64,000 bases of DNA, from assembly GCA_031400515.1 (NCBI GenBank), contig JANNQA010000042.1, positions 4,814 through 68,813 on the forward strand. The letters run 5' to 3'. The number at the start of each line of letters is the position of its first letter. Position 1 is the stretch's first letter. Made by a program: the position numbers and the translations under genes. The notes below the pieces were generated by a model. It worked only from the letters and a program-made list of their open reading frames with translations, did not search any database and was not told the DNA's origin. Below, in pieces: positions 17,629-30,700 of this stretch. This DNA is from Bacteroidota bacterium (GTDB taxonomy: Bacteria; Bacteroidota; Bacteroidia; Chitinophagales; Saprospiraceae).

Positions 17629-17903
17629 ACCTTGGGGCGTCCTTTAGGGACCCGCAAGCGTCAAGCGGGTTGGCCTCTACTTTCTCCTTATCACTTTGTT
17701 TGGAGTTGTCATCCTGAGCGAACGCAGTGAGTCGATTCTTTGTAATCGTGAGCGAACGCAGAGAGTCGAACGATGCAATAGTGCACCACACTATCCAATC
17801 TTGAGAGAGCATGAGCCGATTGAGCGATGCGAATAATGTGAATGCGAACGAAAGATCTTTTTTGAAACCGGTATCGGCAATAGTCACTATTCTGAGATTC
17901 GGT

Positions 17904-18269
17904 CTACTGCTCTTGATGAAACGCTTTTATAAGTTCCTTTAGCTCTTTGTCACTGATGGTTTCTGTATCAGCCTTATCATAAATAGTGATGAGGTTCACA
18001 GTAGCATGTTCATCCGTGGTAAGGATTTCGCCAATCAATGTTGACTCCACCAATGAAATGACCCTTGCGCCACCACTTTTGCCCTTCCCTTTGCTTGAAA
18101 CGATCAAACGGATTTTGTAAGCATTGTGTCCGAGAGGTGTTCCCAGAGTTGGGTTAAGTATGAGTTCACCTTCAAGTTTTAGAAGATCTTTCCGAAGGGA
18201 GGGGTACTTTTTGAGTAAAGGCTTAGCAGCGATCTTAAAACTCCTGGCAATCCGAACAGTGACATTCAC
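17904..18269 (-). CDS. Type II toxin, RelE/ParE superfamily (HigB-like)
   Basis: 121 aa with the motif …KGKGKSGGARVI… typical of this toxin group. It has a GTG start and overlaps the upstream small gene by 4 nt (GTGA). Confidence 0.7.
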   Translation of the reverse strand: MNVTVRIARSFKIAAKPLLKKYPSLRKDLLKLEGELILNPTLGTPLGHNAYKIRLIVSSKGKGKSGGARVISLVESTLIGEILTTDEHATVNLITIYDKADTETISDKELKELIKAFHQEQ

Positions 18270-18478
18270 GTCAGGAAATCTTTAAGAGTCTGCAATTTCT
18301 TTCCTGTTTGTTTGCTTCTTTTTACTTCATCGAGCCCTTCACGAATATTATTCAAGACGGCGAGCTTTGCCTGAAGCTTAGCATAGTTGCTGTTCAACTC
18401 TTCCCAGACCTTTACAGGTACCAAAACAGACGTTCTTTTTCCGTTGTCGTCAGTGACATATTTTATCGCGGTAGCCAT
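18266..18478 (-). CDS. Cognate antitoxin (small coiled-coil protein)
   Basis: 70 aa, upstream of and translationally coupled to the toxin, with a typical toxin-antitoxin size pairing. Confidence 0.6.
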   Translation of the reverse strand: MATAIKYVTDDNGKRTSVLVPVKVWEELNSNYAKLQAKLAVLNNIREGLDEVKRSKQTGKKLQTLKDFLT

Positions 18479-18585
18479 CTGAATTGTTTTTGCAAAACTA
18501 TGAAATCATAGTAAACCGCCCAGGGAAGAGATACGAGAAAAATTTGCTTGTAAGCTCTAACCATCATCCATTTTAAAAGATGAAA

Positions 18586-18693
18586 CCCATTCCCACCCCC
18601 ACATCCAACGCCCGTCCATTGAGAACATGATACATGGCACTAGCGGGGATGCCATCGAATTGTGACAACAAACTATGCTTTGCAAGGATCGAC
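18586..18693. repeat. 108-nt direct repeat, copy 1, flanking the phosphoesterase gene
   Basis: It aligns without gaps to 20614-20721 with 13 mismatches (hand count). Read on the minus strand it encodes …SILAKHSLLSQFDGIPASAMYHVLNGRALDVGVGMGFIF*. Confidence 0.85.
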
Positions 18694-18905
18694 AAAGAAG
18701 GTGAAGGGGAGGAGGAAGGTAAGGGTAAGGCTGATGAGCTTCATGAATTGTTAGAGATAGAAGATATCCGTATCGTATCCATATTTTATCCAAAAAAATC
18801 AGATGAATATTTTCCGACTTTCTCAGGGATTATGCATTATTGGTTAGTTGTATTTTGTGTAATCAAACTACCTATATGAGTTCGACTCTTACTTATAAAT
18901 CAGAA

Positions 18906-20342: not shown

Positions 20343-20599
20343 TATTTCATTTTTAGTTTATAAAATTCTATGCAATATCGTTTAGCGTCCAATCCCGACT
20401 TAAAATATATCTAATCCAAGGCCTTGACTGTTCCTCTGTTCGTTCCTTAATGTATAGAGCATGACAATGTAACCGGACGAATAGTCCGATCCCGTGTTGA
20501 GATACTTTGACGGACTTCCAATCACTCGTTCTCGCCGATGCTCTAAAACTTCTCTTCGCCAGTATAATTCATCGAAAATCCATAGTAGTCCGCGCCAGT

Positions 20600-20779
20600 T
20601 CAAAAAATCATTCCCATTCCCACCCCTATATCCAACGCCCGTCCATTGAGAATATGAAACATCGCAGGAGCGGGGATGCCATCAAACTGCGACAACAGGC
20701 TTTGCTTTGCAAGGATCGACACATGCAGCTTCCGCGAATGAGCGATTCGAATGAAGTCTTGCTGACTGCTCGTGAACAT
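20600..20779 (-). CDS. 59-aa ORF whose C-terminal 40 aa are duplicated in repeat copy 1, possibly a gene remnant
   Basis: MFTSSQQDFIRIAHSRKLHVSILAKQSLLSQFDGIPAPAMFHILNGRALDIGVGMGMIF. It is below the ORF-track cutoff, and I translated it by hand. Confidence 0.3.
   Translation of the reverse strand: MFTSSQQDFIRIAHSRKLHVSILAKQSLLSQFDGIPAPAMFHILNGRALDIGVGMGMIF
20614..20721. repeat. 108-nt direct repeat, copy 2
   Basis: See copy 1 at 18586-18693. Confidence 0.85.
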
Positions 20780-21965: not shown

Positions 21966-22583
21966 TTATTCTGTTAAGACGTCAGCTAAGTTCTTAAAAT
22001 ATTCAGTCAAGATAATAAACAACAACGTGTTACTACTTCTTTTTTTTTGTACTAACAGATCAGCCATGGTAGGGTTAAGAGAGGCAAGATATCCCAATTG
22101 ATCCTTTACGAATTTCTCAAATTTTGCAATTGCATTGTGAGATCTGTGTGCAATAGCGTTACGGATTACAACCAGTTCGTACATTTTATCACTGGATAGA
22201 TTGATCTTTTGAACTCTCGAATTAGACCTGAAATGATCTTCAATTCTTTGTCTAAGAATTGTTGAATCTAACCAGTCAATGTAATCCTTGTCCCGATCTC
22301 TTCTATTCATATTTATTTTTCTAAAAGCGATAGATAAGTTATTATATGGAGTATGTAACGGTTTTATTATTTTATTTGACCTCGTCTTGCAGGAACAAAG
22401 GCATCTTAAAAAATACTCTTCAATGAATAATTCCCAGCAAACTACAAATCTGATATAACAACCTTCAATTAAAGTATCCCTTCTTAAACTTGGCTGATCG
22501 GTAGATACGGACTTTACAATTGATTCGAGTTCTTCAACCTGTCCAACAAGCCTATCGTATATGCTAGTTAATGCGTAAGCCAC
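21966..22583 (-). CDS. HEPN-domain protein (predicted RNase-type effector)
   Basis: 205 aa and all-helical in appearance. The Rx4H motif RNAIAH is at residues 141-146 (nt 22146-22163). The GTG start directly abuts the TAA of the DUF262 gene. Confidence 0.6.
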   Translation of the reverse strand: MAYALTSIYDRLVGQVEELESIVKSVSTDQPSLRRDTLIEGCYIRFVVCWELFIEEYFLRCLCSCKTRSNKIIKPLHTPYNNLSIAFRKINMNRRDRDKDYIDWLDSTILRQRIEDHFRSNSRVQKINLSSDKMYELVVIRNAIAHRSHNAIAKFEKFVKDQLGYLASLNPTMADLLVQKKRSSNTLLFIILTEYFKNLADVLTE

Positions 22584-23615
22584 TTAGACTATGAGTTTCG
22601 AAATTTCAGTATGTCTGAACATTCTCTGCGCCACGTTTCCAGTGGCTTGCTTGAATTCAGCTTTCATGATAGGGTCAAATTCCCTTCTTTGATAATTAAT
22701 ACTGAACTTCTCTAAGCGCTTTATACTTTGTTCAGTATTCACATGCCCTGTTTTCTCATTTACTTTTCCTTCAAAACCAAACAGTCTGGCATAGACCACG
22801 AGAAAAAGTGAATAAAACATAAACTTAGGGCTGAATACAGTTCTTATATGTTTAGATTCTAGTAGATGTCCAAGAATGCTAATAGTTTTGGTAAACCTCT
22901 CATAAAGACCTTTACGATTTGGTAGATTTTCTTCGTATCTCGCGTACATTTTGTCAACTCCAGATGCACTAGCTGACTTAATTCCACTTATCACAGTATA
23001 AAGAATCTCTGAAACTAAAAGCGCATCGGCCATTCTCGCAATATTGTTCTCTGAAAGGATCTTGAATTGTATCCAAAAAGTGTTGTACTCTGATGCTATT
23101 TCATACACTAAGGTCTTAAACTCACCCGCGAATTTTGAATTACGCTTTTCCTGTGTATTTAATGGGAGGCTAAACGAATTTAATCTGGAGAAAATAGAGA
23201 TGATGTCTGCCTCCGTTGCACCACGAATTGAAATAAATGAAACTTCAAAATCCTCATACTTTTGTTGTTCATTTTTTGGTAGTTCAGAGAATAGTAGCCC
23301 GGCGTAGTCTTCTTCTGAAATTACTTTAGTAAGTTTAAAATGATTGGCACTAAATTCAGTTACTATTGAAATCCTTTGTTGTCCATCTATAATTTCCTTT
23401 CTTCTTTCCCCCGCCTCATTAATATAGTCCCTGAGATATATTGGTGGAAGTGGAAAATTACTAAGTATTGTATCTATTAATGCGGTCTTAGCATTTTTTG
23501 GCCAACTAGTTCTTCTTCTTTGATACTTTGGCTGAATCACCATTTCTTTACTTTCAAGCAATCGTGTAATATCTCTGATACTATACATTCTCTGAGATAA
23601 TTGGATCTTACTCAT
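22584..23615 (-). CDS. DUF262 (ParB/GmrSD N-terminal-like) protein lacking a DUF1524 nuclease domain
   Basis: 343 aa with …VIQPKYQRRRTSW… and the signature IDGQQR (residues 76-81). No HNH/DUF1524-like His-Me motif is visible in the C-terminal half. Confidence 0.8.
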   Translation of the reverse strand: MSKIQLSQRMYSIRDITRLLESKEMVIQPKYQRRRTSWPKNAKTALIDTILSNFPLPPIYLRDYINEAGERRKEIIDGQQRISIVTEFSANHFKLTKVISEEDYAGLLFSELPKNEQQKYEDFEVSFISIRGATEADIISIFSRLNSFSLPLNTQEKRNSKFAGEFKTLVYEIASEYNTFWIQFKILSENNIARMADALLVSEILYTVISGIKSASASGVDKMYARYEENLPNRKGLYERFTKTISILGHLLESKHIRTVFSPKFMFYSLFLVVYARLFGFEGKVNEKTGHVNTEQSIKRLEKFSINYQRREFDPIMKAEFKQATGNVAQRMFRHTEISKLIV

Positions 23616-23798
23616 AATTAGATATTTGAGTGTTTAAATTTCAGTTTGTCTTATGGTAGGTTTTTATGAGTTAGATGGATCTATATTTTCAATAAGATTA
23701 ATTAAAGACACGTATATTATCTAATACTTTGGTCAAAAATCTTTGCTAACATAATTGTTTATTCCAATGACGTAGAGTCTTGTCTTTATAAGATGTTT

Positions 23799-24110
23799 TT
23801 ACCTAACTATAGATAGAATTCCAAAATATTGAAGATCATCCTTACTCTCCAAACTCACCACATAAACTCCACTCACCAATCCCTTCAAACTCACTCTCGG
23901 ACTCTCCGGATCAAACCGCTGTGACAACACTTCCACGCCCTGCATATCCACAATCGTCAACACCCCTGCCTCCTCCGTCTTTACCTCGATATAATCCTTC
24001 GCCGGATTCGGATATATCTCCAACTCTCCCACAATCTCATCATCAACATCAGACACCACACATGTCTTACCTGGCAGATTCTCGTCCATCCACTCGAGCC
24101 TTGATGTACA
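23799..24110 (-). pseudogene. Orphan 3' fragment of a CotH-like gene (T9SS C-terminal sorting domain only)
   Basis: (RLE)WMDENLPGKTC…GELEIYPNPAKDYIEV…GVYVVSLES… is about 65% identical by hand count to the last 96 aa of the 28159..30198 gene. The upstream frame is broken by a stop. Confidence 0.8.
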
Positions 24111-28158: not shown

Positions 28159-30198
28159 TCACTTATACTTTACGATCTTTCCTCGAAATGTCCCTGCATT
28201 AGCGGTCTCCAAACTCACCATATAAACTCCAGAACTTAATCCTCTAATATTAACCCTTGGACTCCCCGGATCAAACTCCTGTGAAATCACCTCCACCCCC
28301 TGAATAGCCACAATTCTCAATATACCCGCCTCCTCCGTTTGAATCTCCACATAATCACTCGCCGGATTCGGATAAATCTCCAATTCTCCAGCGATGAGAT
28401 CATGAGTACCTGAGGCAAGGCATGTCTTTCCAGGCAGATTCTCATCCATCCACCTGAGCCTTAATGACAACCAGTCGGAAAAGTAACCGACCTCCTCTGC
28501 GTAGGTGTTTCCAATGAAGAAGTTTGGCCAGACGTAGCGGGAGAGAATAGGCCAGCGCTCGTAGTTGCGGCTTTGCGTGGGTGCGAGAGTGTCGTACATA
28601 GAATCTATCCAGGCAGTGAGGACTTCTGTAGAAAGCACATTACGTCGCAATGAATCATACCGGCATCTCAACTGATCAGCATATGCAGGATCTTCAAGCA
28701 ACCTCGCCCACCACAATGGGGTATTACCGCATGCGCCGCTGTTGATATATGCCCATCCTTCGGTCGCCTGACAATTGCAATAGTCGACGTTGCCATACGC
28801 GAGATTGAAATCCCAGAGCGGACCAGCATGCAGAAGAGAGTCGATGGAATTTCGGTCTTTGAATAAGAAAGTGCTCAGACGGTATGCATCGACGTTGTGA
28901 CCTATTTCAGAAACAATGAAGAGATCAATAAATGACTCCACATCGATATAGGCGCGATATCCAACCTGCGGATCAGCAAAGTCCTTCCCATAGAGTGCAC
29001 GCTCAAACCTATCATAATAGTTCTCGATGTAGGCCTTCTGCTTAGGATGCAGATCCGGTCCTTCGGGATCTTCAAACACAACACGGATCTCCTGGTCCGC
29101 AAATGTCCCTTCATATTCTGAGACGAAGAACGAACCTTCACCATCATCGCGGTCAACTTTGAGGAGATATCCTCCGGTGAGTTTGTCGCCAGTGGTATCC
29201 TGCTCTTCGATCTTGGCGATGTTCACACGATTCTTGTCGCGCTTGATTTTTTCTTCGAGACAATAGACGCCATGATAATCGCCATTGAGAAATAATTCAC
29301 AGAAGACCGTGCGTGGCGCATAATGTCCCATGTCACGACCGAGTTTGTAAGTGAGTGCATCGCGGAGAAAACTCTTATCAGTATATGGTGCATACAGGAT
29401 CCAGTCCTCTTCTTTCGGCAGTCCGAGCAACTCTGTCTCGAGATCATCACCTTCTTCATCCCATGTCTCGAAGCCAAAACTTTTCTTGGGAAACTGTTGC
29501 GACGATGAGCCACGGACCTCGATGCCCAAATCAGAATCATGGATTGGTGTATCCGTGAGATAATTATCAAGACCCAGGTCATTATGAATGATGCGGATGC
29601 GTCCATGGATCTTCGGATCATCGGGAATGGTCAGTTGATCAGTAGTATTTAATATGACGATCGGCAGATGTGAGGATTCAAAATTCATTGGTGATGGTGC
29701 ATCGGGACCGAAAGTGATACTCCAGTCCAGTACTTCTCCGCCATCAGCGTATGCATAAGTATCGAGGACATGTAAAGTCCAGGTGCCATTGCCATCGCTG
29801 CCATTGTTCACAGTGCCGATTGGCGAGAACGGACGATACTTCGCTGTGTATGGAAAGCCACCATCAATAATGTGAACAGAGGTATCCATCGAGAAGCAGG
29901 TATTGAGATAGCCATCCTGATCACCACCGAGTGTCGCAGCGAGCATGATCGTCGTCCCATCCGGTGCAGTCAATCGCACATCGAGATCTGCCATCCACGT
30001 ATGCGTGATGTTGATACATACTTCTTTAAGACCAAAGCCTGCTGATAATGCAGATGACGGAAGATCATTGATACTGCGTGTATAAATGTTGTTCCTTCCA
30101 TCATCGTGGACGATGCCACCCGGGCCGAAGTAACTTTGGGAGAAACATGGGAAAGAAAGCAGGAAGAGGGATAGGAGGGGGAGTGTTTTGATGTGCAT
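28159..30198 (-). CDS. Secreted CotH-family protein with an N-terminal proprotein-convertase P-domain and a T9SS C-terminal sorting domain
   Basis: 679 aa with a signal peptide and a P-domain pattern (…CINITHTWMADLDVRLTAPDGTTIML…). The CotH core is recognisable (…LRDALTYKLGRDMG…YHGVYCLEEKI…). The CTD reads …ELEIYPNPASDYVEI…GVYMVSL…. Confidence 0.8.
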   Translation of the reverse strand: MHIKTLPLLSLFLLSFPCFSQSYFGPGGIVHDDGRNNIYTRSINDLPSSALSAGFGLKEVCINITHTWMADLDVRLTAPDGTTIMLAATLGGDQDGYLNTCFSMDTSVHIIDGGFPYTAKYRPFSPIGTVNNGSDGNGTWTLHVLDTYAYADGGEVLDWSITFGPDAPSPMNFESSHLPIVILNTTDQLTIPDDPKIHGRIRIIHNDLGLDNYLTDTPIHDSDLGIEVRGSSSQQFPKKSFGFETWDEEGDDLETELLGLPKEEDWILYAPYTDKSFLRDALTYKLGRDMGHYAPRTVFCELFLNGDYHGVYCLEEKIKRDKNRVNIAKIEEQDTTGDKLTGGYLLKVDRDDGEGSFFVSEYEGTFADQEIRVVFEDPEGPDLHPKQKAYIENYYDRFERALYGKDFADPQVGYRAYIDVESFIDLFIVSEIGHNVDAYRLSTFLFKDRNSIDSLLHAGPLWDFNLAYGNVDYCNCQATEGWAYINSGACGNTPLWWARLLEDPAYADQLRCRYDSLRRNVLSTEVLTAWIDSMYDTLAPTQSRNYERWPILSRYVWPNFFIGNTYAEEVGYFSDWLSLRLRWMDENLPGKTCLASGTHDLIAGELEIYPNPASDYVEIQTEEAGILRIVAIQGVEVISQEFDPGSPRVNIRGLSSGVYMVSLETANAGTFRGKIVKYK

Positions 30199-30369
30199 AG
30201 AAGAAATGTTACGAGGTACGTGTTACGAGGAAATCGGAATTTAATTAAAATGAAAATTAAAATAAAAAGGGGGAAAGGATCAACCGCCTTCGCCTGCTTC
30301 GGCGGTCGAGGACGGATCAACGGATCAAGAAGAGATCAATTCACTTCGAGACATCCGCAAGGTACCGCG

Positions 30370-30700
30370 CGAAACCTAGCAGGTTAGCTCTACCCAAGGC
30401 CGCGTGAAACCCCGCCCGACTGAAACGTCGTTCGGGCGGGCTGCCAGGTTAGCCCCACCCAAGGCCACACGAAACCATGCAGGTTAGCTCTACCCAGGGC
30501 CGCGTGAAACCCCGCCCGAGTGTACGTCGTTCGGGCGGGCTGCCAGGTTAGCCAACCATTGAACTGAAAGGGTAAGGGCGTATTTCCATTGAAGTACTTA
30601 GCTAACCTTGCAGGTTTAGCTGGGCAATGAGCGCTAGCAACACCTGCAAGGTTTAGCGCGGGTATGTGCACGCGGGGATACCTGCAAGGTTTAGCTGGGG
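30370..30700. repeat. Array of REP-like hairpin repeats
   Basis: The unit aggttagctctaccca(a/g)ggccgcgtgaaaccccgcccga…tcgggcgggctgccaggttagcc occurs twice (30381-30454 and 30481-30553). The word acctgcaaggtttagc occurs three times. Confidence 0.85.

Follow-up and report, generated by a model that had tools for sequence, protein, structure and literature searches.

The 64,000-nucleotide (nt) window analysed here, a stretch of DNA from a Saprospiraceae member of the Bacteroidota (contig JANNQA010000042.1, positions 4,814 to 68,813), carries two adjoining genes, hereafter A and B, which probably make up a self-sufficient two-gene module against phages, of the PD-T4-2 type and acquired by horizontal transfer. 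Gene A (22584-23615, minus strand, ATG start) encodes a DUF262/ParB-like nucleoside triphosphatase (NTPase) of 343 amino acids (aa), predicted from its sequence to be a sensor of DNA and nucleoside triphosphate (NTP). Gene B (21966-22583, minus strand, GTG start) encodes a stand-alone HEPN protein of the RiboL-PSP type, 205 aa long, which is the predicted ribonuclease (RNase) effector. The whole module amounts to 548 aa in 1650 bp. The DUF262-HEPN architecture is already known from PD-T4-2, and the window pair is a divergent member of a known system type rather than a new system. A role in defence, put forward in a preliminary description of this DNA, is the best reading because PD-T4-2, with the same two Pfam families in the same gene order, protects Escherichia coli against phage T4.

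PD-T4-2 of E. coli ECOR65 was recovered in a selection for phage protection; its entry reads "DUF262, HEPN" and gives two coding sequences in 1540 bp, and HHpred assigns its A protein to DUF262 (99.7%) and its B protein to HEPN_RiboL-PSP (97.8%) (Vassallo et al. 2022; PMC9519451, Tables S1-S3). Besides protecting E. coli against T4, the system was deleted in native ECOR65, and this deletion restores T4 plaquing (PMC9519451). DUF262 and PF18735 are also given as the PD-T4-2 domains in a review (PMC10952713). The present comparison relies on the published description and on the PADLOC models. On this basis, both systems have a DUF262 gene in first position and a small stand-alone HEPN gene in second position, in a two-gene operon with no further component. 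Like PD-T4-2, the window pair belongs to the PF03235 and PF18735 families and has neither DUF1524 nor a methylase, and the sizes are similar (1540 bp versus 1650 bp). Unlike in PD-T4-2, the HEPN protein of the window is about 40 aa longer, and the host is a member of the Bacteroidota instead of E. coli.

The association of this HEPN family with ParB-like proteins was described earlier. Table 1 of Anantharaman et al. 2013 contains a "Ribo L-PSP-HEPN" entry, with a conserved Rx4-6H motif and a bacterial operon with ParB (PMC3710099). This is the HEPN family of gene B, and a distant relation to AbiF and AbiD is noted in the same work. The entry belongs to comparative genomics only, with no function tested, and in its founding member the HEPN domain is joined to an L-PSP endoribonuclease; the family of the window, by contrast, is always stand-alone. 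RefSeq, for its part, labels E. coli pairs as "DUF262 domain-containing protein" and "MAE_28990/MAE_18760 family HEPN-like nuclease". Hence, the preliminary description, which was aware of no characterised two-gene system of this kind, has to be amended: PD-T4-2 fits that description, the link to ParB within an operon has been in print since 2013 and such pairs are already annotated in RefSeq.

Pairing and junction of the two genes

The pairing was followed from either gene. With the HEPN family as seed and one genome per species, 28 loci were collected, 25 of which have upstream sequence; a DUF262 gene lies directly upstream and on the same strand in all 25. These pairings include HEPN relatives at just 21-33% identity and extend over at least eight phyla, among them Proteobacteria, Bacteroidota, Acidobacteriota, Cyanobacteria, Planctomycetota, Cloacimonadota and Bdellovibrionota. 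With the DUF262 family as seed, 17 metagenome loci had a full-length match to the subfamily profile and enough downstream sequence. A HEPN gene is found directly downstream in 16 of them and a divergent 215-aa RNACFH protein in the seventeenth; a small R-N-x3-H protein directly follows the DUF262 gene in 17/17 cases. In the same metagenome set, the HEPN gene was never found beside DUF262 proteins sharing the N-terminal domain only. Co-occurrence of the two families beyond the window, on which the original proposal of a functional pair depended, is thus observed at both sets of loci. Moreover, when loci are compared two by two, the identity between A proteins correlates strongly with that between B proteins (Mantel r 0.94, or 0.92 when distant loci only are considered, values reached in 0/5000 permutations), which argues that the two genes are inherited and diverge as one unit.

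No third gene, whether antitoxin, methylase or ATPase, is conserved across the related loci. The only neighbour cluster present at several loci was rejected as a third component, as it is made of antisense shadow open reading frames (ORFs) within the DUF262 gene. Several copies of the module are split. The DUF262 gene is represented by two ORFs at two loci (L003, 1355-2386, and L014, 4756-5851), and the HEPN gene by two ORFs at another (L037, 2054-2802). Such copies suggest that the module often decays, unless they stem from misassembly.

The junction of A and B reads ...ATA GTC TAA GTG GCT TAC... (stop and start codons at 22581-22586, minus strand). As first described, the GTG of gene B abuts the TAA of gene A with zero spacing, and the two genes are in the same frame. 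This junction is likely the site of translational coupling. The N-terminal pattern M-x-Y-x-L that follows from this choice of start is kept in homologues. In close relatives, the junctions are TAA-a-ATG or TGA-t-ATG, with a spacer of 1-2 nt and with A and B in different frames. The same-frame, zero-spacing TAA-GTG of the window can therefore be regarded as a local variant and not as a broken fusion. At the related loci, spacings between -20 and +14 nt are found, leaving out two outliers that are artefacts of longest-ORF calling. Both A and B have many near-full-length homologues (47-78% identity, E 1e-66 to 1e-176), which shows them to be genuine, conserved genes and not ORFs that arose by chance.

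The guanine-cytosine (GC) content is 34.8% over the gene pair versus 43.7% over the whole window, with a local trough of 32-36%, in agreement with the AT-rich surroundings reported at first. The search for an AbiF-type RNA antitoxin or repeat RNA found neither tandem repeats nor an Rfam match, and such an RNA was ruled out on these grounds. Promoter and terminator scans, including one for the Bacteroidota -7 motif TAnnTTTG, gave matches rarer than in shuffled sequence. Finally, a 25-nt repeat (84% identity) is present at 22592-22616 and 23627-23651 in the minus-strand sense. Its first copy, 9-33 nt upstream of the HEPN start, is located inside the 3′ end of gene A and encodes ...RHTEISKLIV*. 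The second copy, 12-36 nt upstream of the start of gene A, reads ...RQTEI*, and no larger DUF262 remnant is present upstream of gene A beyond it. Either this repeat is fortuitous or it is a very small remnant of a former copy of the gene.

Predicted properties of the two proteins

Residues 17-162 of protein A match the Pfam family GmrSD_N/DUF262 (PF03235) with E 2.6e-20, and neither A nor B has a Pfam match to DUF1524. Three motifs are recognised, Q32-R33-R-R-T-S-W38, D77-G-Q-Q-R81 and F142-S-R-L-N146. The second one (residues 77-81; 23373-23387, minus strand) is the nucleotide-binding/hydrolysis motif II of DUF262. No change in it was seen among 37 close and 20 diverse homologues, and the QR...W and F...N motifs are invariant among the homologues as well. 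In HEC-06, a GmrSD-like system, the mutations Q79A and R80A within DGQQR abolish defence (bioRxiv 10.1101/2024.01.29.577857). The AlphaFold model of protein A (predicted local distance difference test score, pLDDT, 86) has two domains, the N-terminal one of mixed alpha/beta type and the C-terminal one all-helical, with no beta structure beyond residue 131. It follows from this last feature that a His-Me finger is absent from the protein. The NTPase domain would correspond to residues ~1-150 and the helical C-terminal domain to residues ~154-339, the latter resembling the ParBDB-type helical domain described for NsnA (PMC12065111). In the Protein Data Bank (PDB), the best Foldseek matches of protein A are BrxU (7p9k, E 3.8e-3), ParB bound to cytidine triphosphate (ParB-CTP), sulfiredoxin and SspE. 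A PDB sequence search with the gene A and gene B family profiles yielded nothing relevant. The 346 homologues matched by gene A are mostly 343 aa long. As judged from sequence and model, protein A is a ParB/Srx-fold NTPase carrying a helical ParBDB-type domain and no nuclease domain, and the absence of DUF1524 claimed at the outset is upheld.

The HEPN assignment of protein B is accepted on combined evidence, the fold evidence alone being insufficient. Protein B matches Pfam HEPN_RiboL-PSP (PF18735) with E 3.6e-6 and 27.4 bits, the gathering cutoff being 28.4. The same family is matched by 12 of 23 diverse relatives and is precomputed on many homologues, and relatives of gene B also match the CARF_HEPN, Csx1, AbiD, Cas13a and RTasHEPN models. 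The sequence R141-N-A-I-A-H146 (22146-22163, minus strand) corresponds to the Rx4H catalytic signature of HEPN domains pointed out in the preliminary description. In the HEPN superfamily, the Rx4-6H motif has a polar residue after the R, as does this sequence. The wider motif IRNAIAH(R/K)S is invariant, across phyla, in 33 close and 23 diverse homologues of gene B, and among 150 cluster representatives its R, N and H each show a conservation of 90% or more. The AlphaFold model is confident and all-helical (pLDDT 87.9, predicted template modelling score 0.85) and, as is the case for the model of protein A, has no beta-beta-alpha element. When the model was compared with the PDB by Foldseek, six of the seven best matches were HEPN toxins, with weak scores (E 0.7-1.1, template modelling (TM) score 0.47-0.59 on the target); the top matches overall have E 0.7-5 and TM scores up to 0.59 on the target. 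The 129 homologues matched by protein B (54-76% identity) are nearly all exactly 205 aa long. At 50% identity, the family comprises 408 clusters, of which the best 150 are all stand-alone proteins of at most 254 aa. Taken together, these sequence features lead to the prediction that B is an RNase effector.

Known systems, mode of action and competing explanations

Both proteins were compared with the PADLOC models (v2.0.0) at E ≤ 1, and only A gave matches. The best one is NsnA of Menshen, with E 1.4e-38 over the full length (residues 2-342 versus 42-379 of 385). The second is PD-T4-2_A, with E 2.5e-21 over the N-terminal domain only (12-199 versus 39-230 of 363), and the other models matched are REase_II and HEC-06. 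When tested on the same NsnA model, 20 of 20 partner proteins from related loci matched it, with a best E of 1.2e-44. Because gene A scores higher on NsnA than on PD-T4-2_A, the likeness to PD-T4-2 may reflect either orthology or parallel assembly. With a partial match to PD-T4-2_A and none to PD-T4-2_B, PADLOC would not call the window system. The idea of a "split GmrSD" is not supported, since the module contains no DUF1524 half and its sensor, with a full-length NsnA match, is closer to NsnA and PD-T4-2A than to GmrS.

Menshen (NsnA-NsnB-NsnC; Millman 2022; Li et al. 2025, PMC12065111) has, as the model matches imply, the same NsnA-type scaffold, made of ParB-DUF262 and ParBDB. However, the window pair has no NsnB ABC-type ATPase (AAA_15 + DUF3696), either beside it or conserved in related loci, and no NsnC, a protein with an N-terminal inPIN and a C-terminal nuclease or toxin; protein B has no PADLOC NsnC match. 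In its main text, the Menshen survey nowhere mentions HEPN (PMC12065111). A Menshen-type locus, composed of DUF262, an AAA ATPase and a hypothetical protein, was met, through its DUF262 similarity, on a conjugative IncFIB/IncHI1B plasmid of Klebsiella pneumoniae (NZ_LR890179.1, 48649-51558); it has no HEPN gene, in contrast to the two-gene module. GmrSD, BrxU and SspE also possess an N-terminal DUF262 NTPase with DGQQR, and two of them, BrxU and SspE, rank high among the structures matched by protein A. Nevertheless, each is one polypeptide that includes a DUF1524 His-Me nuclease and cuts or nicks modified DNA, whereas the window pair has no DUF1524 and its partner is a separately encoded, predicted RNase. 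No DUF1524 gene near the pair is conserved across related loci. HepT/MntA (HEPN-MNT) includes a small helical HEPN protein with Rx4H, and provides the top fold matches of protein B (8xeh, 8xdj, 6m6w and 5yep). The structural likeness is weak (E >= 0.7), and the partner in those systems is an MNT nucleotidyltransferase AMPylating the toxin, not a DUF262 NTPase. Lastly, Dazbog (DzbAB) was ruled out, as neither A nor B has a PADLOC DzbA or DzbB match at E ≤ 1.

Pairs of the same layout are carried by E. coli phages. In Escherichia phage vB_EcoM-689R6 (ON470584.1, 35567-37278), a DUF262 gene and a small R-N-x3-H gene form the e14-type prophage pair. Flanked by the integrase on one side and host icd on the other, this pair occurs in 9 of 5426 complete E. 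coli genomes; its A protein is 33% identical to protein A over 79% of its length, with the same A-then-B order. In the P2-like Peduovirus P24B2 (LR595873.1), a DUF262 + R-N-x3-H pair lies beside a cytosine methyltransferase gene; it occurs in 7 of the 5426 genomes, and its partner is named "MAE_28990/MAE_18760 family HEPN-like nuclease" in RefSeq. The HEPN subfamilies of these phages differ from that of gene B and are missed by the family hidden Markov models built here. With hhalign, this branch aligns to the family profile with 86.5% probability and E 4.6e-6 when a three-sequence alignment is used, and with about 10% when single proteins are used. From these profile comparisons, it is probably a remote homologue of the gene B family. 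The phage-borne HEPN-like partners have no PADLOC PD-T4-2_B match, and no true PD-T4-2 was found in further PADLOC scans of 10 short representatives and of three plasmid- or phage-borne pairs. The E. coli pairs are phage-carried, whereas the close family of the window pair was not found in phage and viral collections.

Several observations weigh against the assignment of the window pair to a PD-T4-2-type defence module. The Pfam HEPN score of protein B is 1 bit under the gathering cutoff, and its Foldseek search of the PDB gave no match at E ≤ 0.001, so that the fold support is weak. PADLOC PD-T4-2_B does not match protein B at E ≤ 1; it matches 0 of 23 locus-derived relatives and 2 of 150 cluster representatives, the lower E value being 7.3e-4. 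Each of the 20 partner DUF262 proteins tested obtains a higher score on NsnA than on PD-T4-2_A. As for the context, genes for secreted proteins of the type IX secretion system (T9SS), a phosphoesterase, FG-GAP proteins, a tricorn protease and radical SAM proteins surround the pair. With T9SS sorting domains that point to a Bacteroidota origin, the neighbourhood resembles common chromosomal DNA of this phylum and has nothing of a defence island. No member of the close family turned up in the viral contigs and the phage and plasmid records searched (tblastn of the HEPN protein against plasmid and phage records, scan of IMG/VR viral contigs). Finally, no mechanistic study of PD-T4-2, dealing with what is sensed or cleaved, was found in the literature searched.

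In view of the relation to NsnA, it may also be envisaged, more tentatively and with a probability that we put well below that of a PD-T4-2-type module, that the clade is an independent "minimal Menshen", in which an NsnA-type sensor would gate a HEPN RNase directly, without the NsnB ABC-ATPase transducer on which Menshen depends. The clade concerned is that of the 408 HEPN clusters, always with a full-length NsnA-like DUF262 partner.

For the PD-T4-2-type module, all steps of a mechanism have to be drawn by analogy, since the literature searched gave none for PD-T4-2. HEPN RNases act in abortive infection, toxin-antitoxin (TA) and CRISPR systems. In GmrSD, BrxU and SspE, DUF262 is an NTP-dependent sensor that regulates an effector (PMC12065111, PMC10952713). 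By this analogy, we infer an RNase activity, an RNA target, a signal sensed by A and the gating of B by A. In such a model, translational coupling would deliver A and B in fixed proportion from one transcript and, A being translated first, B would never be made without its regulator. B would be held inactive in a complex with A. During infection, A would bind phage DNA through its DUF262 and ParBDB-like domains, the target perhaps carrying modifications or being an intermediate of replication or packaging. NTP binding or hydrolysis depending on DGQQR would then cause a conformational switch, licensing or releasing a HEPN dimer whose composite R-N-x3-H site would cleave RNA, be it tRNA, rRNA or mRNA, of the cell or of the phage. 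Translation would stop and the infection would abort.

Alternatively, the pair might be a plain type II TA or addiction module, in which a constitutive HEPN toxin would be neutralised by the DUF262 protein, thereby stabilising mobile DNA with no phage sensing. We consider this unlikely. It is true that small HEPN toxins with a neutralising partner upstream or adjacent are common, that the best fold matches of protein B are HepT/HEPN-MNT toxins, that tight coupling and co-divergence would fit any obligate protein pair and that some copies lie in mobile-element contexts, next to integrases or an insertion sequence (IS). But a two-domain NTPase of 343 aa, with invariant DGQQR, QR...W and F...N motifs, far exceeds the needs of an antitoxin, the same scaffold is the sensor in Menshen, GmrSD and SspE, and PD-T4-2, of the same architecture, came from a selection for phage protection. 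Besides, TA behaviour and defence are not mutually exclusive.

Slightly less probable still would be a DNA-targeting system, where the ParB-like DUF262 protein is the effector, as a nickase, a DNase or a DNA-blocking clamp, and the HEPN protein a non-catalytic regulatory or RNA-binding subunit. ParB-like domains have been classed as DNase domains of systems resembling restriction-modification, a lack of catalytic activity is common among HEPN domains (PMC3710099, Table 1) and GmrSD-family DUF262 enzymes do act on DNA. However, the nuclease of the characterised DUF262 enzymes is DUF1524, which is absent from the window pair. On the HEPN side, R, N and H are invariant in at least 23 diverse relatives, in addition to their conservation over the 150 representatives, and such conservation indicates an active-site pattern and not a degenerate domain. 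Like the TA explanation, this one is disfavoured. That the pair would be an artefact or a product of decay, either one DUF262-HEPN fusion broken by an in-frame TAA or an orphan nsnA, deprived of nsnB and nsnC, beside an unrelated ORF, is effectively refuted: although the A and B ORFs are in one frame with a single stop codon between them and NsnA is the best PADLOC match of gene A, close relatives have a 1-2 nt spacer or a 1 nt overlap and different frames, no fusion exists among 120 listed DUF262 relatives (263-371 aa) or the best 150 HEPN representatives, the NsnA model is covered end to end by gene A, the HEPN pairing holds at 25/25 and 17/17 loci with no ATPase gene conserved nearby, and the true Menshen locus of the Klebsiella plasmid looks different.

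Genomic surroundings and significance

At related loci, the commonest neighbour families are phage integrases (5) and N6/N4 DNA methylases (4), and further neighbours of the restriction-modification and defence type are HEC-06, DpdF and mad3. One module copy is carried by a Rhizobium megaplasmid. A DUF262 homologue at 47% identity is followed, after 1 nt, by a 205-aa gene. On a 3.66-Mb metagenome-assembled contig (L034/L035, 7960-9254), an IS element (HTH_28 and rve transposase) comes directly after the DUF262-HEPN pair, in keeping with a mobile module. Together with the low GC content and the split copies, these mobile and defence neighbours argue for sporadic horizontal gain and loss, typical of defence cargo.

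Within the window, two overlapping genes of 70 aa and 121 aa (17904-18478, minus strand), with weak Pfam matches to RelB-like (E 0.0089) and RelE (E 0.0086), probably form a TA module. The preliminary description placed such a module next to the pair; it lies ~3.5 kb away with two unrelated genes between, and does not accompany the pair at any other locus. For want of conservation at other loci, both this TA-like pair and a 255-aa membrane protein were ruled out as parts of the module. Just downstream of the TA-like pair, two 30-nt direct repeats (TTGTCATCCTGAGCGAACGCAGTGAGTCGA) are found at 17706-17769. A 127-nt direct repeat of 85% identity (18568-18694 and 20595-20721) flanks the phosphoesterase gene (PF04185, 18906-20342), and could be an intergenic repeat element or the mark of a gene-cassette insertion.

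On the other side, just upstream of the DUF262 gene, a 96-aa ORF (23799-24089, minus strand) corresponds to a Por_Secre_tail T9SS sorting domain alone. It copies, at 76% identity over 261 nt, the 3′ end of a CotH/P-domain/Por_Secre_tail gene (28159-30198, minus strand). The two copies (23846-24106 and 28206-28466) are 4.36 kb apart, and three genes of lower GC content lie between them, encoding a 726-aa protein with no Pfam match, a TPR protein and a 167-aa protein with no Pfam match. This duplication may be the trace of a past event, insertion or rearrangement, that affected the 3′ end of this gene. Upstream of the CotH-like gene, the intergenic region 30365-30700 contains GC-rich direct repeats (58-nt, 30-nt and 21-nt families), with a GC peak of 0.545.

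As a whole, the DUF262-HEPN pairing appears as an obligate, co-evolving association present in at least eight phyla. PD-T4-2_B of PADLOC (v2.0.0) misses a large branch of it, in which the sensor is scored as NsnA although neither NsnB nor NsnC accompanies it, and the HEPN protein escapes the model. Censuses of defence systems will accordingly under-count such modules, notably in Bacteroidota and environmental Proteobacteria. Current concepts are left unchanged, and the compact 548-aa module is a tractable model for the coupling of a sensor to an RNase. If the clade were indeed a minimal Menshen, it would be one missed by the current defence-annotation models, and it would offer the simplest natural system for understanding how DUF262 NTPases turn DNA sensing into effector activation.

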